DNA of 63,822 bases, counting the filler, from Reclinomonas americana ATCC 50394 (lineage: Eukaryota), in NCBI GenBank assembly GCA_048213135.1. It is 11 parts of 11 records of this genome, joined end to end, with 100 filler letters (N's around TTAATTAATTAA, not from the genome) between each part and the next. Parts side by side here need not be neighbours in the genome. Positions count along the whole stretch, not along the records: positions 1 to 4,043 come from AFZH01018075.1; positions 4,144 to 9,336 come from AFZH01018076.1; positions 9,437 to 13,461 come from AFZH01018077.1; 8 more parts are not named here. The stretch is one strand, 5' to 3'. Under the pieces are notes generated by a model that saw only the letters and a program-made list of their open reading frames with translations, did not search any database and was not told the origin of the DNA. A program made the position numbers and the translations under genes. Shown piece after piece: positions 381 through 58,905 of this stretch (positions within the stretch are counted from its first letter, which is position 1; each line of letters begins with the position of its first letter).

Positions 381-3300
381 ATGCCTCGCGAGATCGTGGA
401 AAGTGAATTCGACGAGTACGTCCGTCGCAATCGACAAGTTGCGTCACACACACTCATCCCACACAGCATCTTGTGAGTGCACTCACACACACACACAGGG
501 CAAAGGCATTCTCGTGGTGGAGTGGTTTGCTGCTTGGCAGTTGCGTCATCCCCCCCTCTCTTCACTCTCTGCTGCGTCTCACACACCCTCCAACCAGTGA
601 ACCATGTCGGAAGATTGAGAGCTCACTGGTGAGCGAAAACACGCGCATCTCTCTGTTGTCGCACACACAGTCACTCACTCCTCCACAGGATCAACTGAGC
701 CGCGACTTTACCGATGTCACCATTGTCAAGGTGTGTGATCACAGACGCAGCAAGAGTGATGACAACTGACTGATCATTCATTGCACTCTCTCAGATCGAC
801 GTGGATCGCTTCCACGACATCTCCGCGCGAAATGGTGTCTCCGCAGTGCCTTGGTGTGTGTCTGTTATATGTGGTCTTATGTGCGAGTACAACGCAGCGA
901 TCTGTGACTGAGTTGTCACGCGCTCTTACAGCTTCTTCATCTACCGTCGCGGGCAGAAGGTGCATCTGATTCGCGGAGCCAAGGTACGCTGTCGTCGGTT
1001 GCTCTGTGTCTCTTTTCTGTCGTTGTCTGTTGGCGGCATCTCCGTGTTATAATGCTCGATCTTGCCCTTCTTCGATCTCGCAGACCTTCCAGGTGGTTCT
1101 GCGTCCACCTTGTGTTGCAGCTCGCTTGTCGTTCACCTTGTCTGCTGTCAGCCTCACTGCTTTGCACTGCAGCTCTCCTTCTCTTTCCCGCCCTTCTGTC
1201 AATCTCGCAGCATCCAGTTGGTTCTGGCTGGCATACAGTACTGATTCTCGCCCTTCAATGCTTCTCTTCCACATTGTGTTGCAGTCGTTCACGTTGCCCT
1301 CAGTCAACCTCCCTGCTCATCCACTTTGCACTGCAGCTCTCCTTCTCTTTCCTGCCCTTCTGTCAATCTCGCAGCATCCAGTTGGTTCTGGCTGGCAACA
1401 GTACTGATTCTCGCCCTTCAATGCTTCTCTTCCACCTTGTGTTGCAGTCGTTCACCTTGCCTTCAGTCACCCTTCCTGCTCGTCCAGTTTGCACTGCTGC
1501 TCTCCTTCTCTTTCGCTTCTGTCAATCTCCCAGACCTTTCAGTTGGTTCTGCGTCTTCTTTCTGTCATCCTTTTCTTTCTCGCTCCTCTTCCACCTAATG
1601 TTGCAGTCGTTCACGTTGCCCTCAGTCAACCTCACTGCTCATCCACTTTGCACTGCTGCTCTCCTTCTCTTTTCCGCCCTTCTGTCAATCTCGCATCTCC
1701 TTTCTGTCAACCTTTTCTTTCTCGCCTTCGATTCCTCCCACTGTTCTTCCCCCTCGCGTTGCAGCTCTCCTCTTGTCCTCCACCTTGCCTTTGCTGTTGT
1801 TCTCACTTTGTGCTCTCTCTCTCTCTCTCCGTGCAGGTCGCCGATCTGGCTCGTGCGATTCGCGCCATTCAACAGCAGGCCGAGCAGCACCAGCCGGAAC
1901 ATCAGTCCAGTTGCGTGACGCATCTCCTTGTCTACGTGGTTGCGTTGCGCAGTCGTTGATTCGTTGTGCAGATGCGCTGACGGAGGACGAGCTGCGGCAC
2001 ATGACGGTGGGTGCACTGAAGGCGCGCTTGCGCCAGCTGGGAGCGCAGCCAGACGAGATCGACGCGTGTGTGGAAAAGCTGCGTTTTGCACGTGCGGTCA
2101 CACGCAGGGGTGCTGAGTTGCTGACCGTCGACCCGTGTGCAGGAGCGAGCTTGTGGCTCTCGCAATGCGCTACCAGGCGCGGTCGGCGCCGCAGAGGACG
2201 TCGGTTCCGCCGCGGTTGCCACGCGGTGTCATGGTCGGTGAATGGTTTGTCGGCCTGTCGCCTGACGATGAGGGACCGCGTGAGGTGTTTGAGGCACATT
2301 TGCGCGCCATGGACTGGTCGTTCACCGACCGACCTGACAATAATCACACGGGCAAGAGTGCGTGGCTGTGTTTGTATATATTTGCGTGTTGCCTACGCCG
2401 TGTGCTGATTTCACTCTGTGGTGCACAGTTTCCCTCCCGCGCTCCGCTCTTGCTCGAATCAGTGCGTCGCCCGCCCTCGTGTTCTCTCTCTGTCCAGTTG
2501 TGTCATGGTGTTGCGGCTGACGTAGTCCCACCCCCTTTTCTGCAGCACACATGAATGTTCCGTATCCGCTGGCGTTTCAAGTTCGCAATCCCGAGTCGCC
2601 AGTGGTCACGCATGCCGGAGCGCCGGAATGGGATGCACCAGAGGGTGCGGTCGTGCTGCCACACTGGGTACGAAGCGACCGCACAGCTGACGGTGTGGTA
2701 CACTGGCACTCACGTTGCGTTGCGTCGTGCAGATGATGAGCAGGCTCCATTTGACGCCCGGTGACGCGGTGCACCTGATGACCGTTCCAGTGCCGCGCGG
2801 CAAGCGGGCGCGAATTCAGGGGCACACCTCGGCGTACGCCAAGCTCGGCGTCGACTTTGAGAGTGTGTGCGTTGAGCTCATGCACTGTGCGCTATGGTCG
2901 TCGTGTGCCAGACACATGCTAATCAACGATGACATGCAGGTTGTCGGCCAAGATGCAGGATTATTTGGTGCTCACTGCCGGTGACCAGCTGGTGCGTGGT
3001 TGTGAGGCGAAGTAAGTGACTTCGAGTGACCACTGACTCGTCATCCTTCTCTCTCTTTCCACGCAGGCCATTGATGCTGGTGACGGTGAACTGGTGCCGT
3101 TTACAGTGCTGGCAGTGCGTCACATGTGTTGTTGTCATTTGTGCAGTCGGTGCGCGTGATCTAACGGTGTGGAGCGTTGCAGGTCGAGTCGGAGGAGGGC
3201 ACGACAGATGTCATTAGTACGCTGGATGTGGATCTGCATCTGGATATTGCACCGCCGCTGGACACGGTACCGTCGCCGCTGGCAAATCAACCAATGGGTG

Positions 3301-3793: not shown

Positions 3794-4043
3794 CTACTTC
3801 CCCTTCACAGGATCCACATCAATGCACAGCACAAACTGCCGCACTCGCTTGCGCAGCCGCTCAACGGCTTCCTCCTCCACCTTCGACTTGGTGTTGTTCA
3901 AGAGGGCACCGGGCTTCTGCATTCTCTTGAACACGTGCGTCGGCGCCACCCAGTAGAACTTGATCTCCTCCTCGCTGCCCAGCAACGCGCGCACCAGAGG
4001 CAGCAAGCCACCCTGACTCCTCTCCGTCAGGACAATGATATCA
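3794..4043 (-). CDS. 3' fragment of a probable Crinkler/RHS-type REase-domain protein (5' part lost in gap)
   Basis: Reads DIIVLTERSQGGLLPLVRALLGSEEEIKFYWVAPTHVFKRMQKPG...RVRQFVLCIDVDPVKGK*. This matches the remembered CR-REase C-terminal pattern H-x-I..GL..L.....(L/F)YFVVP..F...Q.....VxQ(F/Y)VLxI. Confidence 0.5.
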
Positions 4044-4143
4044 NNNNNNNNNNNNNNNNNNNNNNNNNNNNNNNNNNNNNNNNNNNNTTAATTAATTAAN
4101 NNNNNNNNNNNNNNNNNNNNNNNNNNNNNNNNNNNNNNNNNNN
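4044..4143. other. Assembly gap spacer (44 N + TTAATTAATTAA + 44 N). Identical spacers at 9337-9436, 13462-13561, 19404-19503, 22262-22361, 26119-26218, 30584-30683, 36871-36970, 47270-47369, 56705-56804
   Basis: Ten identical 100-bp blocks whose core puts stop codons in all six frames. Confidence 0.98.
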
Positions 4144-5110
4144 GTTGACGAGGAAGAAATACACTCACCTCGCCATGAGAGACGGAGAGGAGATGTGGAG
4201 TGGACTTGAAAGACGTATCATCACATTCGTGTGAGCAATCGCGGTGACACCTGCGGAAAAGCATTGAGAGAGAGAGAGAGGGAGATCGTCCATCGGCGGT
4301 GGAGGGGAGAAACACAAACGAGAGAAAACGTACCACGGGAGATGGTGCGAGCGAAAGAGGCAAAGAGCATCGTGAACGAGCAAGCGTGGGACGTGGTGTT
4401 GTTTACGTCCTACTCGCTAGCGTCCAACAGTCATATTCCCTTTCAGGAGATCCAGCTGCGATCGTCCTTGCTGCGCCGGCTCTTGCAAGCGACAGTGATC
4501 TCGCCTACTGCGTGTGTGCCAGTGAAGCGGAGGAGTGTGTGGGTCTGTGTGAGTAAGTGACATTTCTCCGCAGTGAGACTTCTTGGTGTGCATTCTGGCA
4601 ACTCGCAGTGGATCATCGTCTCTCTCTTTCTCCATCTCTCTTGCTTGCATTCTGTTGCTCTCTGATGATGATAGTGTGCAGCTTCGTCCTTGGAGCTGAC
4701 ATGGAGGTCGTGCCCCAGCAACCGACGGCTGCAGTCATCTCCCATTCTGCTGCTGCTGCAGGTTTGCACGACTGAGTAATCTTGGGGTCCGTTGCGATGG
4801 TTGTACGAGTGTCGAGGTCGGCGGTCGCGAGAGCAAGATCGGCAGCAGAGTGGATCGGAGGACAGCACGCCAGCGGAGGGCGGTTGCTGTGTGTTGTGAC
4901 AATTATCAATCGCATCTTGTGGAGAAACGTGAACTGTATGGCGTGCAGCTGGAGGCCGCCGTTGCGCCGCTTCTCGATCCGATAGCCGAGTTGTGGATTG
5001 AGAATCCAATTGTCAAGCGCTTTTCTACAAACCCACTTTGTTGACAACCTCACACGCTCGTGCACCCCCCGACGGGCACACCAGCGCGCTCGGCTGAGAG
5101 CGTGAACATC

Positions 5111-8100
5111 ATGGCCACGGAAGCCAGCATGCCAGGTGAGCCAGTGAGTGAGCGCGTGATGCATATCTTTGTGGAGTGTGTGGCGTAGGGGTTGGCACAC
5201 TGCATTTATCTTTACGAAGAGCGTTGTTCTATGTATTCGTGTGTGTGCACGTACTGCATGAGGTCCGCGTGTGCTTCTGCATGCGTTGCCGTATTCGACT
5301 TGTGATTTGTGTTATAAGAGACAGAGCGTGCGCGTGTGGGTGAGAGAGAGAGAGAGGGAACATCACCACTGCGTTCACTGTGTTTGTGCGTGTTAGTGTG
5401 TCGCACACACGTTGGCGAACTTGTGATTTAGATTGTGCGTGAGTGCATTCATCATCACTTTACATAACGCAGTTGTCGCAGATGAAATGCCGGAGAACGA
5501 TGACGACGTCCGCACATTGGAGGAAGCGGAGCAACGCGAGGAACTTCTATTTGATGTCGCCAGTCGCGCTAGGAGGGCTGGCAACAACATCTTGGCCTCG
5601 AACTGTTTCGCACGCGTAGCGGCGCTTAGTCGCTTAATCACCGTCCTGAAAGCCACTCCGACTGGTGAGCAGAATTCTCTTTCATGCACGTGAGTTAGTG
5701 GTGTATGATTTGGCTCATCCACAGAGAGAGCGAGAGGCAACATCACTGCATTCACTGTCGATGTGTGTCTGTCTTTGTCGACGAAAAGTCGTATTTCCCG
5801 CAGACGTTTCAGGTTTCCTTACAAAAGTCGTATGTCGCAGAATTGCCGGAGAACGATGATGACGTTCGCACGCTGGAGAGAGCGATGCAGCGCACGACGC
5901 TTCTACTTGATGTCGCCGGTCGTGCTATGGAGGCTGGCAACAACATCCTGGCTGCGAACTGTTTCGCACGCATGTCTGCGCTCAACTACTTAATCAGCGT
6001 CCTGAAAGCCACTCCGACTGTCTCTGCTGGTGAGCCTAATTTTCTTTCGTGTACGTGAATAAGTGGTATACATTTGATTGAGCTCATGCTGCGGAGTGCA
6101 GACGATGGTGACATTGACAACATGCAGTCGAGCGAGGTGGCAATCGACTGGCAGTCGCGTCGCCGTGCAGATCGCGCGCAGCGATGCATTCTTGCCGTGG
6201 TGCGATACATGGCCGCCTGCGACGACCGCAGCGGTGACGACATCTTCTCTGACGAGGCGCTGGCACGAGTGATGGAAGGTATGAATGTGTGTGCGAGTGG
6301 CACGTCGCAGCTTATCGTGTTAACACGAGCATGCTTCAGCGTTCTGTGTGTCCCTCCGACGCGATGTATACGCATTGGAGCCTGTGTTGCATGGCCTGCT
6401 GTTGCCGACGGTGGCGCCTGCGGTGGTGATGGATCGGGTCCGCACCATTCGCCGCCAGGTGAGCGAGGAATCACGAGAGTGGACTGTTGACATGGAACGG
6501 TGAGTGTTCTCCCCACCACCGCCGTGTGACTGATGAACCACTGTGTCTTTCTTTACGTGTGTGAATGGTATGATCGTTGCTGTGTGTCTGTGTGTGCATA
6601 CGTAACAATTTGTATGCATCGTATCTTTGTGTTTCATTATCAATCTCCTCTTTTCCGTGTGTTTTTGTGTTTGTTGCTTTGCAGTGCACTGCGGGCATGG
6701 AAGCATGGCTGTGCGGTTGTCACCGCTGCAGCGACCACCTATCCGCAACGCGGTGCGTGGCAAATGTCATCGTGCACTGACTGCCGTCGTGCTCATAACA
6801 CCGTGACATCAATCGCAGTGTTTTCCATGTCTGAGATCGGTGTGGGAGTGTTCCACTGGTATCCCACCGTCGGCGCCATGCTGCAGTCGCTGCTTTGTGA
6901 GAACAGGGTTCTGCGCATTGACAGCGGTGCGTGGCAGTCCACGTATTGTTTCGAGCTGCGTTGCTGATACTACACGCTGCGAACTGCGCCCGCGCAGGCT
7001 TGCAGGTGGTGGCCTTGTCGCCCGAAGAAGAGGTCGTAGCACCCGTGCTCTTCATCGAGTGCAAGGCCGGTGCGACGTACCGCTCCAGGTGAGACAAACT
7101 CTCGCTGCGGAGAGGCCTAGGGATCTGCGACCGCTATTGTTGATCGAGCCTCTGTCTCTTACGCTCTCTCACACGCGCACTGCTATTTCCATTCACTCTG
7201 AGTATCTTGTGCTCTCTCTCTTGTATCAAGACTTGGTCTCTCATTCTCTCCCACTCGTGCAGTCTTGCCTACTTTCTCGACACTTTCTTTCTCTCTCTCT
7301 CTCGCTTTATCACATATTCACTATGTGCTCGTGCTGCGTTTATCATCTGTGACTTGTCTTCATCTTAGTCTCTCACTCTCCTCCACTCACGCTCATACTC
7401 CTGCACTTGCGCTCATACTCTTACCTTCTTTCTCGACACTTTTTCTTTCTCTCTCACGCTTTATTCACATATTCACTCTCTCTCTCTCTCTCTGTGTGTC
7501 TCTCTCTCTCTCTTTCGTGTTTGTTATGACTGAGCCGTTCCTTTTACCTTAATCTCTCATTCTCTCCCACTCATGCTCACACTCCTGCACCTTGTACTCT
7601 CTCTCTCTCATACGCGGCCCGCGCAGTCATCGCTCCGGCACAGTGAGCGACGAGCATGGCGACCGTGTACGGTCAGCAAACGTCGACTTCTTTCGAGGAG
7701 AATACATGCCGAGAGACATTCCTCTCCTGGAGAACTTGCCGGCAGTGGAAGAAACGATGCCTGTGCGTGGAGCAACAACAACTGCCGACGACGACAGTAG
7801 TGGCACTCAGAATGCAGCCCTCCGATCGACGATGCTTTGCGTTCTCTCTCGCCATCCGGACCTGCACAAGTCGATGCACCAGGCTTGTGGGAACTGGTGG
7901 ATGCTGGCGGCACACATGGATCGCCGTGAGTGGTCGTCGTTGATGACCGCCTTCTGTCTGACCACCGAGTGGTCAATGTCGCTGTTCGTGGTCACACATG
8001 GTGCCAGTGATGTGGAGCCATTGGAGACGCTGCCGTTTGCTTGGTTGCCGTCGCCGTCGTCGGTGGCGATGTGGGAGATGAACGCCGCTCGCGAGTGTCT

Positions 8101-9336
8101 GCCACTGCTGAACATCTCGATTGTCGGCATGTGGAACATGACGCCACGGGGCGACTACCCACAAACAGTGCAGGTCGACTTTTGTGGACGCCAATGTGAG
8201 TTGCCGATTGCACGCACTGTTGTGGCTCATGTGCGAAGACCGTATGACAGTTGTGTGCGTGCGTGCACAGTTGGGGATCGAGAGTCGATGTTTGCGGCCC
8301 TTGCCGGTGTGATGACCTTGTGTAGGGAGGGTGTGACGGATCTGCAGTCTTCACCCGACCACCACATTCTGGAGGCACTGAAGAAAGAAGAAGGTGAGAC
8401 ACTCACAAGGAGAGTCGCATCTGCTGGTGAACTGCTTTTGACTCGTTTGCTGATGACACAGAGAGTGCTGAGACTCCGAGGCCGCCTGCGGTTGCTGCTG
8501 CAAACCGGGAGCAGCAGCCTTCATTCGGCACTACGATGTTCGTGAAGTGCTGCCACTCGTGGCGCGAAGCGAGCCGTGAGATGCGTGTGCTGGAAGAGCT
8601 GCGACGCACAGCGTCGCCGGCCGTGCAACTGCGGCTACCGACACCGATTCGTGTGGACGAAGCGGACTTGTGGTTGCAGCTGCTGCCGAACGATCACGTG
8701 TACACCATCGAGGATCTGCGGATCGTGGTGCGCGATGTGGCGACGGCGCTGCACCATGCACACACCAACGGGTGGGCACACTTGGATGTGAAGCCGGCCA
8801 ACATCATGTACAGTCGACACGAGGTGGCGACACTGATCGACTGGGATCTGGCGCGGTCGTTGCGCGATCGGCAGCGCGGATCAGAGCGGATCGGAACGCG
8901 CCGGTTCATGGTGAGTGGTGGAGGTGAGTTGAGTGCGACACAAAACTCATTGCATGGTCAATCGCAGTCTCCGGAGGCGATCGGCGTCGATCCGTTTGAG
9001 GAGAGCAATTACCCGCCGGGCGGCAAGGCAGACATGTGGAGTCTGGGAGCGACGATTGCCTGTTACGTGGTGGACGAGTTCGGCGTCGTGGTTGACCCGT
9101 TGTGTCACCCTATCGAGCAGGCGGCTGCGGCTGTGGAGGCGGTGCGAGAGTGCGCGCAGGCGCATCCGGGCGAAGACGGATACGCGGAAGTGGCCGAGCT
9201 TGTGGAGTGGCTGATGGAGTTCTGGCCCGCGGACCGACCGACGGCGGAGCAGGTGTTGGAGCATCGCTTTTGTGCGAACGATGGTGAAGATGGCGAGGGT
9301 GAGGGTGGTGAAGATGGTGAGGGTGAGGGTGGTGAA
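5111..9336 (+). CDS. Crinkler-like effector copy 1: duplicated helical N-terminal module + PD-(D/E)xK (REase) domain + atypical protein kinase. True start uncertain; ORF runs into gap
   Basis: Spliced exons 5473-5664 and 5841-6029 (helical repeat), then ..RIDSGLQVVALSPEEEVVAPVLFIECKAG (ExK at 7057-7065) and LHKSMHQACGNWWML..TAFCLTTEWSMSLFVV. Kinase: MFVKCC..ASREMRVLEEL..GWAHLDVKPANIM..LIDWDLA..IGTRRFM|SPE..KADMWSLG..DRPTAEQVLEHRF. Confidence 0.75.
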
Positions 9337-9436
9337 NNNNNNNNNNNNNNNNNNNNNNNNNNNNNNNNNNNNNNNNNNNNTTAATTAATTAANNNNNNNN
9401 NNNNNNNNNNNNNNNNNNNNNNNNNNNNNNNNNNNN

Positions 9437-10443
9437 CTCATTACCCTCATGCTGCTCTCGACACTGCCGCCGGCACCACCACCGAATGTCATGGCGAAGA
9501 TGTTGCGCGGGGTTTGCAGCGTGCAGATCTTGAGGAGGATGACTGACGATTCACTCTGCGCGCAGGGCCAACATGATGACATGGCTGTGGTGTGTCAATG
9601 CGACGTGTGCGCCGTGCTTGCGACAAATACTGGTGTCGAGTCTGCGACAGTTTGAGAGGGAGCACCGAGACGCCGGTTTCTGCTTGCAGGATATTGACTT
9701 TGGGTCGGAGAGGTGCGTGGCGATCGCGTGGGAGAGATGGGAGAGGGGAAGTGTCTGATCGAAACGAGGCGTGAGTGCCTGCAGGTTCATGGCATTGGAG
9801 AGTGGCCAGCGACGGCGGTTGCAGTTGCCTGTGGGCAATCTCACGGCGTTGTCGGCGTGCTTGCAAGAACTGACGCTTGGCGACTCGCCTGAGGCGAGGG
9901 CTGCGGACATGGAGACGCTGGAGGAGCTGGATATTACAACGTTGAGCACGGTGCTGCTGTACTTTTACTATCGGAGGGATGCGCAAGATGCGATGTCGGC
10001 GCAGCCATTGGTGGCGGATCCGCTGATCGTTACGCGGAGGGGGGAGCGATGGTGGTCTTCCTTAAGCTTGTTGTCTCTCTCTCTCTCTCTCTCGCTGCTT
10101 GTCTTCTCGCTCGCCCTGTTTTTTCTCGCGCGCCACTTATCCAGATCCGCTGACTCACCACGCACCACCCGCCATGCAGAGACAAGCCATTGACGCCATA
10201 CGTGTCTCGCGCAACGTGGTTCGGCACGCTACAGCGCTCTCCGTGGAGCACAATCAGTTGATTCAGTTCATCCGCAACTCGCACACGCTGGTGAACCTGG
10301 CCTTCACTCTGCATCTGTGCGAATTGGCGTGCAAGAACCGATGGATGGCATGTCTGCACACGGCAGAGCTTGCGGTGCAGGAGACTGACGAGGATCAGGA
10401 GGAGGCGGTAATGAGGCGGAAGGGGTGTGCGGAATGGTGCTGA
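9437..10443 (+). CDS. HEPN-domain (DZIP3/Swt1-like) putative RNase; 5' end in gap
   Basis: Spliced with introns 9502-9565, ~9713-9784 and 10029-10179: ..ANMMTWLWCVNATCAPCLRQIL..LEELDITTLSTVLLYF..PLVADPLI|RQAIDAIRVSRNVVRHATALSVEHNQL. R-N-x3-H motif at 10210-10227; DITxL motif at 9930. Confidence 0.65.
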
Positions 10444-10746: not shown

Positions 10747-11167
10747 GTCAACCACGCTTATGCGGTGAAGATCGCAGTTCTCGACTTGTTCGGAGATCCG
10801 AGAGAAAGCACACACACACACACAAGAAACCTGCTGCTGCCTCAACTACAACAACAACAATTCATTCACCAACAAACGAGCAACAGCTGTCTTGATGACC
10901 AAGTTCAACCGTTTCCAAAACATCAACACAGACACCAATCTTGAGGCAGCAGCAGGTTCCTTGTGTGTGTGTGTTCGCTCTCGGAGCTCCGAACAAGTCG
11001 AGAACTGCGATCTATTAATCGCATAAGCGTGGTTGACAGCTGCAGATTGGTGTCTGTGTTGATGTTTTCGATACGGTTGAACTTGGTCATCGAGACAACT
11101 GTTGCTTGTTTGTCGGTGAATGTTGCATTATTGGAATGTGGTGAATGAATCGTTGTTGTTGTTGTTG
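10747..11167. repeat. Interleaved inverted repeat A-B-A'-B'
   Basis: A (10747-10845) matches the reverse complement of 10941-11037; B (10846-10940) matches the reverse complement of 11044-11167. Confidence 0.85.
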
Positions 11168-34600: not shown

Positions 34601-36004
34601 CACAATAGCACAACTCCCTCCACACAGCAGCAGAGGCCGCAACTGTTGAACATCACACCGTGGTCGACTCGCATATTCGGGTTCTCACAAAGCAGCAATT
34701 GGAGCGTGGTGCCGACAGTGGGAAACCAGTGGAACACGTCCACAGCGTTCTCAGACATCTCGAATACTGTACAACATAATCTCCTTAGCACACTTTAAAG
34801 CAGCGCACACACACTCATGTCTCACACGACGTCTCACGCACCGCGTTGCGGATAGGTGGTCGCTGCAGTGCGCACATCTTCACATCCACGTCTCCATACT
34901 TGCAAAGCACTGCGAGTGCGCACAGACAAAGAAAGAAAGAACAAACACACAAACACACACGGAAAAGGAGATTGATCATGAGACATAGACACACATACAC
35001 AAAGATACGAGTGCACGCATCGTTGCGTATGCACGCACAGGGGACACACAGACGCACATCAACGATCACACCATTCACACACGTAAAGAAAGACACAGTG
35101 GATCATCAGTCACTTCAAACTTTCATCACGGCGTTGGTGGGGAGAACACTCACCGTTCCATGTCAACAGTCCACACTCGCGATTCCTCGCTCATCTCGCG
35201 GCGAATGGTGCGGACCCGATCCATCACCACCGCAGGCGCTACCGTCGGCAACAGCAGGCCATGCAACACAGGCTCCAATGCGTACACATCGCGTCGGAGG
35301 GACACACAGAACGCTGAAACATAATCGAGTTAACACGGTAAGCTGCGAGGTGCCACTCGCACACACACTCACACCTTCCATCACGCGTGCCAGTGCCTCG
35401 TCAGAGAAAATGTTGTCACCGCTGCGGTCGTCACAGGCGGCCATGTATTGCACCACGGCAAGAATGCATAGCTGCGCACGATCTTCATGGCGACGCGACT
35501 GCCAGTCGATTGCCACCTCGCTCGACTGCATGTCGTCAATGTCACCATCGTCTGCACTCCGCAGCATGAGCTCAATCAAATGTACACCACTTATTCACGT
35601 GCATGAAAGAGAATTGGCTCACCAGCAGAGACAGTCAGAGTGGCTTTCAGGACGTCGATTAAGTAGTTGAGCGCAGACATGCGTGCGAAACAGTTCGCAG
35701 CCAAGATGTTGTTGCCAGCCTCCATAGCACGACCGGCGACATCAAGTAGAAGCGTCGTGCGCTGCATCGCTCTCTCCAGCGTGCGAACGTCATCATCGTT
35801 CTCCGGCAATTCTGCGACACACGACTTGTGTAAGGAAACCTGAAACATCTGGCGGGAAATGCGACTTTATTTCGTCGACACTCCCTCTCGCACACGCCAC
35901 TAACAGTGAGCGCAGAGAGACTGCCTCTATATGCGTGCATGTGTGCGCATGTGCGTCATTTGTGTCTTTGTGTTGATTTGAGAGAAAAGTGAGAGTCAGA
36001 GAGC

Positions 36005-36045
<41 letters not shown>

Positions 36046-36502
36046 AGAGAGAAAGAGAGAAACAGAAAGAGTACGTCTGTGAGCGGCACTCACTGCATCT
36101 CCTCCTCTCACACAGTGTGCGTGAGGTGCACTCGCTGCATCCCACACACGCTCTCTCTCAAACGGAGCACCGCTCGCTCGCTCGCTCACCTGGCGACGGG
36201 AAGCTGCCGGCTGCCGCGGCCATGACTCCTCTGATCCGAAAGTGTGTGCTCTCAGAAGCCGTTGAATTTGGTTTCGCGCCAATTCGCAGCGGGTCCAATT
36301 CTGATTCATCCAAAACATCAACACAAGTCGGATAGACTTTCCTCTGCACATGTTCGCTCACATCACCCTTGCTTTGCCTATCGACCTCCTCCCTTCCGAC
36401 TGCTTCTCCCCACATAGGCAAAGAATCTTCTACTTGCATCATAAATATCTCGCTCTTCTCTCCTTCTTCTCTCTGTCTGTCTCTCGGTAAATTACTGGAC
36501 AC
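31606..36502 (-). CDS. Crinkler-like effector copy 2: single helical module + REase + atypical kinase + distinct C-terminal tail (ends tentative)
   Basis: Inverted paralogue of 5111-9336: ELPENDDDVRTLERAMQR..; VKHADLQVLALSPENVVVAPVFFIECKAG (exon ~34460-34562); LHKSMHQACWNWWML; HVKRCH..HLDVKPAN..IDWDLA..GTRRFM|SPE; then tail exons IELEDNPVPP..|ALRHQGAYED.. Confidence 0.78.
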
Positions 36503-48100: not shown

Positions 48101-48210
48101 TGCGTGAGTGCATGAGTGAAAGCCATTGTTTGGGTGGCGACGAAACAACACAAGTGACGGCTTGCATTTTTTTCGTTCCCTATTAAAAAAAGAATTGTAC
48201 AAGGTGTGTG

Positions 48211-51200
48211 TCATCTAGGAGGGTGGAAGCGCGCAATCGTTTCCGGAGCAAAGAAGCGCGCAAAGTCAGGCTCGGCCGACCAGTGCTGCGCGGCCAACTC
48301 GTACACGCGCAGGAATACGCGCACAAAGCGCGCTGGCGAATAGAAATAATCAAAGATACCAGCAGGTGGTTGAAGAGCCTGCCACACAGAACAACAACAG
48401 AGCGTGAGCTCGAGTCTTTCTCTTCCGTACATGAAAAAAACCCAACACAGACCTCTTTGGTTTGCGGTGTGTATTCGCGATAGTGGTTGCACACGTTGCG
48501 CGTCAGGCGCAACAAGTCAGTGGCGCTGTTCTTGTCGTACTTGCGATACGATCCGCAGTCGACGGCCACAAAGTCGTCGAGCTTGGCGATCCACCCGTCG
48601 GGACCTGCAGCAACACGAGATAAACAGAGCTGTCGCCACCATCGCTCCGGTGCATCAACACACTGACCGACAAGCGCCGGCGACTCCCGCGTCAGACTCT
48701 CCCACACAATGGACGGGCTGCCGCGCTCCTTGCCCAGCTGCTCGCTGACCTGGGAGATGAACATCATGCGCCGCTCGCCGTCCCAGAACGCCGGGTGCGC
48801 GCGAACTTCTTGCATCGATGGTCTGTGCCGCGGTGTGTAATGAGCACAACACACACTCTCTCATCAATGCACGCAGCACTTCCTCCACCGACCTGCTGTT
48901 GGGATCGGCCTGAATCATCGACTGAATAAGCACCTTATGCAGCGGCAAGTGATCGACGCCGCGGAGATCGGCACGCCCACGCAGAATGTTGTGCTCGCGC
49001 GAGTGCCTGCACCCGCTTGTCAATCCACAGCACGACAGCAAGAGCACGATGACGACGACACCAACAACGCAACACGTCGCCAAACGGATGCTTGCCCTTG
49101 GTGAGCACATAGTAAAACACACAACCGACAGCAAACACATCCATGGCCTTGGTCATGCGACCCTGGTTCAGAATCTGTCGGGTACACACATTCAGAACAC
49201 ACAGTCCATCCCTTCCTGACACATTCAAGTGCATCAAAATGCGCACCTCTGGTGCCTGCCAGCCAAAGGTGCCGTACTGATCCAGTGTTTGGAACGAGAT
49301 CTGATCACGGGTGAGGATTTTGCCGGTGCCCATGTCGGAGATCTTGACCCTGTGTGCGCCACACGAGTCAGCACATGCGGGAGAGACAGTGGCGACACAC
49401 GCGATTGTCTGCTCACCTGTTGTCGATGCCCACCAGAATGTTTGCCGGCTTGATATCTCGATGGACGATATTCAAGCTGTGCAAATGGGCAATACCAGCC
49501 GCCACGCCCTCAATGGCCTGCGCGTCACGAGTGAGCAAGAGGAGTGAGGGAGAATGCAAACGCAAGAGATGCACACCTTCATGGCCACCTCGGTCGACAT
49601 CTCTGGCAGAATGTCCGAGAGATTGCCAGTACACCGCTCCAGCACGAGATACACAAATTGGCCATCGGATTCCTGTCGCACAGACAAAGAATGCCGTGTG
49701 AATACGTGCGCACATCATCTCACCCAACACAAAAACAACAAAACCTTGGCGTAGTAGCGGACGACATTGGGATGATCGTCCGACGATACCTGCATGCATC
49801 CACCAAGTCAGTGCACGGGACTGACAAACAAGGTCGTTGGAGAGAGAACTCACCAGAATCTTGATTTCTGTGTCGCTGACATCGAAGAACTCGCACAGCA
49901 TGCGTTTGACGGCCACAGGTCGGCCACCCAACAGACCGGCATACACCACGGTGCCGTCTTTTCCGCGACCTGTTCAGTTGCACTCAACAGTCAGGCATTC
50001 GTCATTGGTGCTGATAACAAGCGCGCAAATCGCACCAAGAATGTCGCGCTGAATCTCCAAACTGCCGACACGAGTGACACCATCCGGTGTGACCTCCTTG
50101 TCCGGCTGGAACTTTGGAGGCCCTGCACAACATGCACACGTGAGTCAATGAGAGTGAACGAGCATCGCAATAGTCGTCGCAATGTGACGCACTGCCCCGA
50201 GAACTCGACTGCGATGGGCGAGGAGGGTAAGAAATTACGATAAACACACAATGACACGGCACATGGGTACGCACCGACGACCACGATCCCCACGACGGCG
50301 ACTCCTCGTCTGCATCTCCCGCAGCTGCGGTCGGCGCCGCTGCAGTTGCTGGTGGTTGCGGCGGTGGCGGCGGTGGCGGAGGCAACGATTGCACCGGTGG
50401 CGGTGCTTGTTGTGGAGGCGGAGCAGCAGCAGTCAATGGCGGCGTCGAGGTGGCAGATTTCGGCGGTGTTGGTGCGACATGCGCCGGCTCAACCGGCGCG
50501 TCTTCAGGCTCCGGCTCGTCACCACTGTGCGTCTCGTCGTCCGACGGCTCATCCGAGGCGACTGCTGGTCTCTGCGAGCGCCCAGCCTTGCCACCCTTCT
50601 TGCCGGCCTTGCCACCCTTCTTGCCCGCTGCTGGTGCCTTCTTGCCACCGGCGACTCCGCTGCCGGTGTTATTCGACACCTGGCTCGGCTTGGAGCCACC
50701 ACGGGAGGCAGTATTCTACCAGGGATGGTCAGCAAGCAGGAAACAGAGAGAGGAAAAGTGGAAGTAGAACACACACCTTGCTCGGTCCAACAATGCACCG
50801 ATGTACGGCCACGACAATGCCCACAGGCAGCAACAGCATGCAGCACACGAGTGCAGCAGTGGCGGTCGGGTTCACCCGACTCAGTGCGAGCAACCAGTCA
50901 GCTGTGCCCCACCCGTCAGCATCGCACACACCTCGCACCACACGAACACAGCATGAGGGTTACGCAACCGAGAATGGTGATGAGCGGCGCAGTTGGCGGC
51001 ACAGGCTCGTACTTGGGGATCTTGCTGGTGCTGCCGAGTGACCTGTGCACACACACAAAGTGTTAGAAAACATCTCCTACCTTCCCTGACAGCAAGCATG
51101 CACGCAACGAATCCGTCGCCCGATCAGAGTCACCAGTCGCCACCTGCTCCGAATCTCCATGCGGCAACGCGAGGCGACCAGGCACAGCGATCGGTTCGCT

Positions 51201-55670: not shown

Positions 55671-58600
55671 ATGGCAGACGTGCAGGTCAGTGCTCTGCCT
55701 CTCTCTGCATGTGTGTGTGCGCTGACCACTCGCGCACTCGTCGCTGCATTTCGCATTGTTTCTGTTGTTGTTGTTGCTTGTGCTGATGTACATCTCTTCC
55801 CTCTCTTCACAGCGTGTGGTCCAAGAGGAGCTCGAGGCGGCACTCGGGCGTCAATGCACCGAGGCCCTTCGCGGGTGCGTGCTGACGTATCTGGAGCACA
55901 TTGTAATGGACTACTTGCAAGACGAGGTGGGCGTGCTGGAGGAGAGTGATGTGTTGTCGGCCATGGTGCTCTTCCTGCACGCTGCCGGCTTCTTTGTGGA
56001 GGCTGCTGGTGGCAGCAGCAGCAGTGGTGCCAGTGCGAGTGCTAGTGGGCGACTGGCAGTGCAAGAGGTCTTGCGACGTGCGTTGAGTGGATGTGAGGCG
56101 CGAGGGCTGGCGCGCGCACAGCGATTGGCCGTGCGCCCACTGGATATGCCTGTGCACTTTGACAAGTTCTTGGCCGATCAGAGCACTGCTGCAAAGGTTA
56201 CGCGTGGAGGGAGGCCGCGTCTTGTGTGTGCCACAGGCAGTTGTCCTCAATGTTCATGCATGCATGCAGGGTGTGTTTGGTTTCGGCTCGGAGATGGTGG
56301 AGGCCAACTACAATGAGGAGCTCAACTGGGCCAATGATGAGTGGAAGCTGGCGCGCAAGAACAAGAAGGATGCCAAGCTGCGTGAGAAGCAGCAGAAGGA
56401 GATTGATGAGCGCATGGCGATTCGAGGCACCAGCAAGGCCTTCAAGAAGGTGCTCTCTTGTTGCGAGTGTTGTCGTGCGCGCGCGCGCTTGCCACTGACA
56501 CCCATGCGCGCAGGTGCATCCCACTGGCGAGCGTGTCACCGGCAAGGCCGAGTTGATGCTCTACAACTTTGATGTGTCGATCGGCAGCAAGACTCTGATT
56601 GAGGCCGCCAATCTCCAACTCGCCGACGGTCATCGCTATGGCGTCGTCGGCAAGAACGGCATTGGCAAGACCAGTTTCGTGTGCCACTGCCTGTGTTGCT
56701 CCTCNNNNNNNNNNNNNNNNNNNNNNNNNNNNNNNNNNNNNNNNNNNNTTAATTAATTAANNNNNNNNNNNNNNNNNNNNNNNNNNNNNNNNNNNNNNNN
56801 NNNNTCTCTCTCTCTCTCTCTCCTCCACATCTGTCGTGTGTGCTGAAGCATCCGTGCAGCTCTGTTGCACCAGCTGTCCAGTGGCGACATTCCCGGAATT
56901 CCCGATTACCTGCAGATTTTGCACGTCGAGCAAGAGGTGTGTATTCACTCTAAACACCGCAAAGAGGCCATGCCTCACACTGCTCTCCCGTTTCAGGTGC
57001 TGGGTGATTCGACGACGGTGCTTGACAGTGTGCTGAACACGGATGTGGAGCGTCTCGCATTGCTGGCCGAGGAGGCGGACTTGTTGACGAAGAGTTGCGT
57101 CTTGCTCTTCCCACTCACTCACATTGGTCGCCGCTCATCTTTGCCGTACTGCGTTTGCACAGCCGACGACGCTTCCTCTGCACGGCTCATCAAGGTGCAC
57201 GAGCGACTGACGTTCATCGAGGCCGACCAGGCGGAGGCCAAGGCGTCGTCGATTCTCACCGGTCTGGGCTTCAGCATGGAGGACCAGAAGAGACCAACGA
57301 AGGAGTTCAGCGGCGGCTGGCGCATGCGTGTGTCACTTGCCCGTGCCCTCTTCTGCGAAGCCGACATTCTGTGCCTCGATGAACCGTTGCGTCCTTCCTC
57401 AAGTCGTTGTCACTTCGTCTACGAGGCGACTCACTTGCATGTACATTTCACAGGACGAATCGTGCGTGCCTTCTCCGCCGTACTCTTGCATCGCGCGTGC
57501 TCTAACCATGTTCCTCGCAGACCTCGACCTGTACGCTGTCATGTGGCTGGAGGAGTACCTGATGAACGTTGTGTTCTTGATTGATACCCGACCTACCCTC
57601 TCCGCCGTGCTGGACTCATTCCCTTTGCCTCCACAGTACAAGAAGACGCTGCTGGTGGTGTCCCACGCCCGTGACTTCCTCAACTCGGTCGTCACCGACG
57701 TCATCCACGTGCATGATCGCACCATTACGCAATACAAGGGCGACTACGAGACCTTTGATCGCACCCGTCGCGATGCCATGCTGTTGCGTCTCTTTACCTC
57801 GGAGTCGCGTATCCAAGTGCGCCAACTCACTCCCTCTTCACGGCACAGCCTGCAGGATCGCATGCGCGATGCACAGGAGGCACGACGGGCGCACGTGCAA
57901 ACCTTCATTGATCGCTTCCGCTACAAGGCCAAGACGGCCAAGATGGTGCAGTCGCGCATCAAGATGCTTGAGAAGATGGACTTTATTCCCGCCATGGCCG
58001 AGGATCCCTCGTTCATGTGGCACTTCCCCTCGCCGGAGCCGTGTGCGCCGCCAATTCTGCAGGTCATCGACGTGGCGTTCGGCTACTCGCCCGAGCGCAT
58101 TCTGTTCCGTGACGTGAATTTCGGTATCGACATGGAGAGTCGCGTGGCCCTGGTCGGCCCCAACGGTGCTGGCAAGAGTACATTTATCAGCGTGCTGACG
58201 GAGGAGCTGGAGCCGACCTCCGGCATGGTCGTGCGCAGTGGCAAGGTCTGCAGCTCCACACAGTGCTTCTTGCATCTGTGTACGCGACTCACTCTTCTGG
58301 CGACGGTAACAGGCTCGCATCGTGCGCTTCACGCAACACCACGTCGACCAGCTGAACCTGGTGCAGAATCCGCTCGAGTACATGCGCACCATGTACCCCA
58401 TGGTGAGCAGAGGCAGTGAATAGAACCTGCTGACTTTCACGCGCTGACTTTGTCGTGTCGCGCAGGCCAAGGAGCCGGCGATTCGCTCTCACCTCGGCAA
58501 CATGGGTGTGACGGGTGAAATGCAGCTGCAGCCAATCTACACGCTCAGTGGTGGTCAGAAGAGTCGTGTGGCGTTTGCCTACATCACCTTCCCGAAGCCG

Positions 58601-58905
58601 CACGTGTTGTTGCTCGATGAGCGTTGCGTAATCTCAGCGCATGTTCCTCGCCTTCTTGTTGCTTTTCTCACTCCACTCACTGTGCAGCGACCAATCACTT
58701 GGATCTCGACACGGTGGAGGCACTCATTGCGGCGCTGAACGAGTACGAAGGCGGTGTGATGCTCGTCAGTCACGACCAGCACTTCATCTCGGCGGTGTGC
58801 GACGAAATATGGGAGTGCGACCACGGATTCGTGAAGAAGTTCCCGGGCGACTTTGCCGACTATCGCCGCTCGCTGGAGCAGAAGCTGCATGGCGGCCTGC
58901 GTTAA
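55671..58905 (+). CDS. ABCF3: ABC-F family ATPase (ABCF3/GCN20-like); spans gap 10
   Basis: RYGVVGKNGIGKT, LHVEQEV, FSGGWRMRVSLARALF..LDEPTNHLD, LLVVSHARDFLN, TFIDRFRYKA..MVQSRIKML, GPNGAGKST, LSGGQKSRVAFA..LLDEPTNHLD; no TM segments. Confidence 0.9.

Follow-up and report, generated by a model that had tools for sequence, protein, structure and literature searches.

In the 63,822-nucleotide (nt) stretch of Reclinomonas americana ATCC 50394 DNA analysed here (the window), we establish the gene models of two paralogous genes, A and B, their protein kinase, their paralogy, the purifying selection between them and the conservation of a nuclease-like motif. The best-supported object is a new, divergent, multi-copy kinase family. 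Our best explanation, to which we lean tentatively, is one real gene family of the helical-header/restriction endonuclease (REase)-like/kinase kind and not an island. The original prediction had described three adjacent toxin-like units, a Crinkler-REase-like tail, a PD-(D/E)xK-kinase gene and a HEPN gene. Coding units are indeed present at all three places, but they lie on three contigs, their toxin-like character is a matter of interpretation, and only the kinase is supported by searches.

Gene A and paralogue B share one exon plan:

5111-9336, plus strand: gene A, 12 exons with GT-AG introns in an uninterrupted spliced frame, 840 amino acids, ATG at 5111, open into an assembly linker
5111-5135, 5473-5664, 5841-6029, 6102-6278, 6340-6499 and 6685-6752, plus strand: gene A exons 1-6, from the spliced frame
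6819-6926, 6998-7088, 7627-8195, 8271-8393, 8462-8910 and 8968-9336, plus strand: gene A exons 7-12, from the spliced frame
36223-32235, minus strand: paralogue B, 11 exons on the plan of gene A, intact, 853 amino acids with a stop codon
9282-9336, plus strand: 24-nt tandem repeat, 2.3 copies, Gly/Glu/Asp-rich, found by Tandem Repeats Finder and running into the linker

Paralogue B is located 22.9 kb downstream of gene A on the opposite strand, which bears out the predicted paralogue about 23 kb away, and 642 of 772 aligned residues (83.2%) are identical between A and B. It keeps the PD-(D/E)xK-like signature as well as the kinase motifs, possesses a single header exon and stops 45 residues past the kinase domain; gene A itself is probably almost complete. 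The 24-nt repeat at the end of its contig is the probable cause of the assembly break at 9337. A 496-nt contig from public DNA runs matches positions 9132-9323 with 11 differences and continues with 255 nt of unlike sequence, where the reading frame, read by eye from the first letters past the match, stops a few codons after the divergence. This suggests a third copy of the kinase gene. The family is lineage-specific and multi-copy, with two full copies in the window and a probable third in the contig from the public run.

Over the whole of A and B, the ratio of non-synonymous to synonymous substitution rates (dN/dS) is 0.43; the kinase has 0.16 and the nuclease-like block 0.41, and no block that allowed a calculation reaches 1. 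Selection between A and B is purifying, with no diversifying selection, so that the dN/dS check proposed along with the original prediction, run here between the two paralogues, speaks against diversification. The synonymous distances form a mosaic, with dS of 0.09-0.15 in the flanks and 0.47 in the nuclease-like block (dN 0.19), a pattern for which gene conversion surrounding an older core offers the best explanation. The products of both genes appear to be cytosolic proteins of about 850 amino acids in whose sequences no export signal is seen.

Upstream of the start of gene A, an open reading frame (ORF) on the plus strand at 4342-4548 looks coding-like, with an ATG start, a GTGAGT donor at its end, a G+C content at third codon positions (GC3) of 0.72 and 0.157 bits per codon. 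An in-frame splice partner was looked for and none was found; the ORF could belong to gene A as a 5' exon or form a small gene by itself. The first intron of paralogue B (35990-36060, minus strand) contains a long (GT)n microsatellite.

The kinase domain was located by several means, and its catalytic elements could be placed individually:

8462-9282, plus strand: protein-kinase domain, from Pfam PF00069, alignment to CK2 alpha, AlphaFold2 and Foldseek
8539-8550, plus strand: kinase lysine of strand beta3, assigned by inspection
8575-8601, plus strand: glutamate of helix alpha-C, by alignment to CK2 alpha
8779-8802, plus strand: catalytic loop, by alignment to CK2 alpha
8839-8847, plus strand: D-W-D in the place of DFG, by alignment to CK2 alpha
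8911-8967, plus strand: 57-nt intron inside the kinase, from the gene model

On gene A the Pfam profile PF00069 scores 74 bits (E 1.7e-20) where the cut-off is 31.7, covering profile positions 88-262 only. The beta3 lysine, the alpha-C glutamate, the aspartate and asparagine of the catalytic loop and the metal-binding aspartate are all present in both A and B. An AlphaFold2 model of the kinase, built from an 18-row alignment, reached a predicted local distance difference test (pLDDT) value of 68.3 and a predicted template modelling score of 0.70, its small N-lobe being of low confidence. With this model Foldseek returned at least 500 matches in the PDB at E ≤ 0.001, and the top matches listed are kinases; the best are kinases of the CMGC/CK2 type, with E 8e-9 and a template modelling score of about 0.5. 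The best E-value of a PDB sequence search with the kinase was 9e-8. By motifs and model, gene A contains a genuine, divergent protein-kinase domain that bears the catalytic motifs.

The divergence is seen in an exhaustive phmmer search with the kinase ORF against 1.84 billion representative sequences, which gave 3135 matches at E ≤ 0.001, ten at E ≤ 1e-10 and none at E ≤ 1e-30. When the top 45 of the 150 listed matches were scanned with Pfam, 44 possessed two or more Pkinase stretches, and these matches consequently rank by their summed score; one match among the 45, P0026, bears a NERD nuclease-related domain. The closest well-known relatives are CK2 alpha and the CMGC kinases, among which the model has its best structural matches; HMMER alignments pair helix alpha-C, the catalytic loop and the D-W-x that replaces DFG with those of CK2 alpha. 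Unlike these kinases, gene A has no glycine-rich loop and reads D-W-D where CK2 has D-W-G, the identity in the structural alignments is about 18-19%, and a large unrelated N-terminal region precedes the kinase.

Within this N-terminal region we identified a segment with the signature of PD-(D/E)xK nucleases, followed by a conserved domain:

6827-7065, plus strand: PD-(D/E)xK-like segment in exons 7-8 of 12, its motif conserved in A and B
6827-6835, plus strand: conserved acidic residue of this segment, from the A/B alignment
6914-6922, plus strand: conserved aspartate of this segment, from the A/B alignment
7018-7065, plus strand: P-E...hhh-E-C-K strand signature of gene A, from the A/B alignment and at motif level only
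34530-34483, minus strand: the same strand signature in paralogue B, likewise from the A/B alignment and at motif level only
7811-8393, plus strand: conserved middle domain between two variable low-complexity linkers, from the A/B alignment

The segment is rich in beta structure, and its acidic residues and the E-x-K are kept in A and B although they fall within the most diverged block of the two proteins. Among the 127,640 residues of the window's six frames there are two instances of hhh[DE]hK, one per paralogue, and 32 of the looser pattern P[DE]-x8-20-[DE]xK. A and B thus probably, by a tentative estimate of ours, contain a nuclease-like module of the helical-header/REase/kinase kind. Of the PD-(D/E)xK-kinase gene described in the original prediction, the multi-exon gene and its kinase stand, while the nuclease part receives no support from profiles, sequence or fold.

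Searches of the non-kinase parts in Pfam, PADLOC, NCBIfam and the PDB were made with exon-level pieces, and the putative nuclease core spans three exons. The PDB sequence searches with the exons of the HEPN candidate, the tail, the exon-6 ORF and the middle-domain profile used a threshold of E ≤ 10, and the word-indexed protein searches covered the "longer" proteins. Under these conditions the middle domain matched no family in Pfam, PADLOC or NCBIfam, a metagenome scan with its alignment found no relatives, and the word-indexed search yielded 922 candidates with none at E ≤ 0.001. The ESM Atlas returned only unnamed or PC-esterase leads for it, at 0.91-0.92.

The N-terminus of gene A presents a further feature, a duplicated exon:

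5473-6029, plus strand: tandem duplicated exons 2 and 3 of gene A, a helical unit of about 63 amino acids and candidate header, from the direct repeat and alignment

The direct duplication (5484-5664 versus 5840-6020) comprises 181 nt with 81% identity, so the predicted local duplication is present and takes the form of a tandem exon duplication. The duplicated exons are 192 and 189 nt long, and since both lengths are multiples of three a use as cassettes or as mutually exclusive exons is possible. At the amino acid level the two copies are about 67% identical (tblastn). The single header exon of paralogue B (35811-35623) is nearly identical to the second copy of gene A, and it is the first copy of gene A that has diverged. 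Judged from the repeat and the alignment, the N-terminal unit of 63 residues, which A carries twice, appears helical. One could imagine a single toxin body carrying alternative headers by exon choice, within a conflict locus adjoining a HEPN gene; we regard this as improbable.

The systems to which this layout invites comparison are the Crinkler/RHS-type (CR) effectors. According to the excerpted sections of PMC5289972, REase plus kinase makes up roughly one sixth of the CR C-termini, the REase is thought to carry the toxicity with the kinase regulating it, and the headers are either ubiquitin-like (Ubl) domains with an L-x-L-F-L-A-K motif or unrelated alpha-helical domains; the same sections rule out signal peptides for CR proteins. 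The introduction of PMC12957317 defines the Ubl/L-x-L-F-L-A-K header likewise. Like the REase-kinase effectors, for example Phytophthora infestans CRN8 (PMC5289972, excerpted sections), gene A combines an N-terminal non-catalytic module, a PD-(D/E)xK-type signature and a eukaryote-type kinase, and its family is multi-copy and devoid of a classical signal peptide. The N-terminus of gene A is hydrophilic, and by analogy its helical duplicated unit could be a header of the alpha-helical kind.

The differences are equally to be considered. In contrast to the CR effectors, gene A lacks the L-x-L-F-L-A-K/Ubl header motif and its REase fold is putative; outside the kinase it is similar to no database protein, in searches that lacked a direct comparison with CR proteins; an extra conserved middle domain is inserted between signature and kinase; and the selection between A and B is purifying instead of diversifying. 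Of the REase-kinase CR architecture that had been proposed, the compatible layout therefore remains, while evidence for a REase fold and the L-x-L-F-L-A-K motif are missing. We infer that the fold is that of a nuclease, that the protein may be active as one and that it is connected with the CR families. The protein would be built from a helical unit (duplicated in A), a beta-rich P-E...E-x-K segment, the middle domain and a C-terminal CK2-like kinase. Most likely, its mechanism is that of CR proteins with header, REase-like and kinase parts, in which the nuclease-like module would bind or cut nucleic acid and the attached kinase would control this module. As no export signal is seen, the action could take place inside the cell.

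To judge the neighbours of gene A, the composition of the window has to be taken into account. It consists of 11 assembly pieces joined by 10 identical linkers of 100 nt, each made up of 44 N, the 12-nt spacer TTAATTAATTAA and again 44 N. Three features bear on the order of the pieces:

4044-4143, no strand: assembly linker, 100 nt, one of the 10 identical linkers
9337-9436, no strand: assembly linker, 100 nt, one of the 10 identical linkers
56511-58890, plus strand: ABC-F gene, crossing the linker at 56705-56804 in line

The two gaps said to accompany the toxin-like units are these ordinary linkers, two of the ten in the window, and it follows that the tail, gene A and the HEPN candidate sit on three separate contigs. 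Contigs from two small public DNA runs (one sample) bridge neither of them. At the linker 56705-56804, the sole testable junction of the ten, the ABC-F homologue P0152 matches colinearly on the plus strand, with residues 159-214 at 56511-56681 and with residues 210-345 at 56853-57386, which shows that the pieces are correctly ordered there and that the hidden stretch is short. The adjacency of the three units across 4044-4143 and 9337-9436 is probably real as well.

The first neighbour is the minus-strand exon of the presumed Crinkler-REase:

3797-4042, minus strand: the tail, a last coding exon of 82 amino acids with its stop at 3794-3796; the ORF runs into the N's at 4043

With 0.398 bits per codon and a GC3 of 0.80, the best of the six frames, the tail is clearly a real coding exon. 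It matches nothing in Pfam, PADLOC, NCBIfam or the PDB, none of its 191 candidates in the word-indexed protein search reaches E ≤ 0.01, and it does not resemble A, B or the HEPN candidate. Between the linker and gene A (4144-5110) the minus strand does not look coding, so the rest of the tail gene must hide in the gap. Profile, PDB and protein searches give no evidence that links the tail to a Crinkler REase; what had been given this name is a real minus-strand ORF that matches no family or structure.

The second neighbour is the HEPN candidate, with a repeat structure in its 3' flank; a gene elsewhere in the window is listed beside it for comparison:

9573-10443, plus strand: HEPN-candidate gene with three exons (9573-9712, 9785-10028, 10180-10443), 215 amino acids, from the spliced frames
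10210-10227, plus strand: R-N-V-V-R-H motif of the HEPN candidate, from a pattern search
10747-11122, no strand: inverted repeats, interleaved, flanking the HEPN candidate on its 3' side, unique in the window
48186-49973, minus strand: IRE1-type gene with Pkinase matches and Ribonuc_2-5A (KEN), from Pfam, the Ribonuc_2-5A match coming from a single ORF at 2.2e-12

The codon usage of the candidate is mildly coding-like (0.10 bits per codon, GC3 0.72-0.74), its donor at 10028 is weak (GTTACG), and an alternative start at the ATG at 9789 would shorten the product to 167 amino acids. HEPN proteins are described in the excerpted parts of PMC3710099 by an R-x4-6-H motif whose arginine is followed by a polar residue (N, D or H), an upstream acidic residue, typically in an E-x3-[KR] of helix 2, and a four-helix bundle in which the motif closes helix 3; solo HEPN proteins are also mentioned there, as is the DZIP3/hRUL138 family, expanded in some eukaryotes. 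The candidate resembles the HEPN RNases in its R-x4-H with an asparagine after the arginine, the polar residue demanded by the published rule, and in a helix that, read by eye, likely ends there and is followed by more helices. E-x3-R strings occur in the first two exons of the model; their placement in helix 2 would depend on the fold. It differs from these RNases in that its exons match neither a HEPN profile nor a structure, the four-helix fold being putative.

Searched singly, the exons of the candidate matched no family in Pfam, PADLOC or NCBIfam and nothing in the PDB, and exon 3 gave no usable ESM Atlas match and no metagenome relatives. A six-frame count over the whole window gives 14 occurrences of R-N-x3-H and 96 of R-[NHDQ]-x3-H; the motif alone is accordingly weak support. 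The predicted HEPN gene is thus found to end at 10443 and to contain R-N-x3-H at 10210-10227, but this motif is common by chance and no profile matches. The candidate may resemble DZIP3-type HEPN sequences. Overall, the motif makes a HEPN identity possible, with the larger share of our expectation lying elsewhere. KEN (Ribonuc_2-5A) is an RNase of the HEPN superfamily, and the KEN domain of the IRE1-type gene is the sole profile-recognised HEPN-type domain in the window; one of the 14 R-N-x3-H motifs (48483-48500, minus strand) falls in this gene. The inverted repeat of the original prediction was recovered as two interleaved pairs, 10747-10845/10941-11037 with 88% and 10863-10941/11044-11122 with 92% arm identity, and the minimum free energy of the RNA of 10760-11130 is -175 kcal/mol.

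Several observations weigh against our favoured reading of a single helical-header/REase-like/kinase family. No glycine-rich loop (GxGxxG) is found in A or B, where only one glycine lies upstream of the lysine, and together with the restriction of the Pfam match to positions 88-262 this leaves the kinase activity not certain. Among the 150 best kinase relatives there is not one that shares the first 600 residues of gene A; the best match to them has E 0.046 and is not colinear. For the exon-level pieces no nuclease family was found in Pfam, PADLOC or NCBIfam, and PDB sequence searches with the exon-6 ORF and the middle-domain profile returned nothing relevant. The AlphaFold2 model of exons 9-10 of 12 (7628-8392), from a two-row alignment, is unusable with a mean pLDDT of 35.6, and L-x-L-[FYW]-L-A has no match in the window's six frames. 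Finally, a functional link between the neighbours is possible, as the HEPN motif fits the published rules and the order across the linkers is probably real.

These points raise the question whether gene A might be a plain lineage-specific signalling kinase with a novel alpha/beta regulatory domain upstream, a coincidental E-x-K and unrelated orphan genes as neighbours. We consider this unlikely, but it deserves to be taken seriously: all non-kinase pieces were negative in Pfam, PADLOC, NCBIfam, the PDB, the atlas and metagenomes, the selection between A and B is purifying, and neither a secretion nor a header motif was found. It would, however, leave to chance that the signature is kept in both paralogues inside their most diverged block and that hhh[DE]hK turns up nowhere else in the window's six frames. 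The negative searches are themselves weak. Even a well-conserved ABC-F exon of the window (402 amino acids) has best relatives of only 46-51% identity in a protein database search, the best named one being the heterolobosean Acrasis kona with 48%. The lack of any match above 51% implies that Reclinomonas americana and its near relatives are missing from the protein collections, and in a lineage so barely sampled the absence of homologues of fast-evolving domains is weak evidence. Another way of explaining the upstream region is a tandem of pseudokinase and kinase, in which the E-x-K strand and the middle domain form a degenerate kinase-like domain before the active one. An order of elements resembling a kinase can be read by eye (K strand, long helix, two strands, D-F-C-G 14 residues past an asparagine), and the helices and strands of the low-confidence model would fit. 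The quantitative comparisons point the other way and make this very unlikely: a kinase hidden Markov model made with 227 domain segments from the 150 matches gives the upstream region a score of -1.1 bits, the hhalign probabilities are 1.8% and 0.2%, Pfam Pkinase does not match that ORF, and the supporting AlphaFold2 model is the one with pLDDT 35.6. The degenerate kinase-like domain was rejected on this basis.

The conflict island, in which a REase-kinase toxin and a solo HEPN RNase would lie beside the REase tail of a third, Crinkler-type protein and be directed with it against viruses, bacteria or prey, is in our view a distinctly improbable explanation. The layout of gene A is compatible with CR REase-kinase proteins, the kinase family is multi-copy, the contig order is probably real, and the R-N-x3-H comes with a polar residue after the arginine and a likely helix end by eye. 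Against this stand a tail without any match whose remaining gene is unseen on the minus strand of 4144-5110, an R-N-x3-H string found 14 times in the window, two HEPN-candidate exons neither of which is matched by a HEPN profile, a paralogue B that has neither neighbour, and the lack of diversifying selection. The flanks of B and A have no sequence in common, a second copy of the tail or of the HEPN candidate is not present in the window, and the three products are unrelated when compared with each other. As the genome is gene-dense, three neighbouring genes are to be expected. The tail gene and the HEPN candidate are best regarded as separate small genes whose proximity is probably real, without demonstrated functional meaning. 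The evidence does not establish a toxin or defence island, and against the proposed polymorphic conflict locus speak a paralogue B without either neighbour, purifying selection and neighbours that are known from a motif or match nothing. A two- or three-gene intracellular conflict locus in this deep-branching protist, with a helical-header/REase/kinase toxin adjoining a solo HEPN RNase, seems hardly likely.

The remainder of the window has the appearance of ordinary eukaryotic sequence, with many short GT-AG introns and pyrimidine-rich 3' ends. Of the window's 239 stop-to-stop ORFs with 110 amino acids or more, 104, picked from the longer ones, were scanned with Pfam (E ≤ 0.001), and 15 of these had a family, all of ordinary or housekeeping types: metallophosphatase, WD40, synaptobrevin, AMP-binding enzyme, the IRE1-type kinase with Ribonuc_2-5A, ABC-F, Nuf2 and TSC22. 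The window's introns often contain CT/GA-rich tracts. At 908-1918 (plus strand) a long open frame with a translation rich in Leu, Ser and Cys holds a 163-nt tandem repeat (1160-1695, 3.3 copies, 86% matches).

As they stand, our results are mainly of corrective value. What was taken for an "island" comes down to three contig pieces that neighbour each other; two of its three "toxins" have short motifs or nothing at all behind them, and the one solid object is the kinase family. If the nuclease-like reading of this family is true, the CR proteins would gain a REase-kinase family from an under-sampled eukaryotic lineage that is very divergent, multi-copy and rich in introns, with the duplicated header exon and the extra middle domain as its unusual features.

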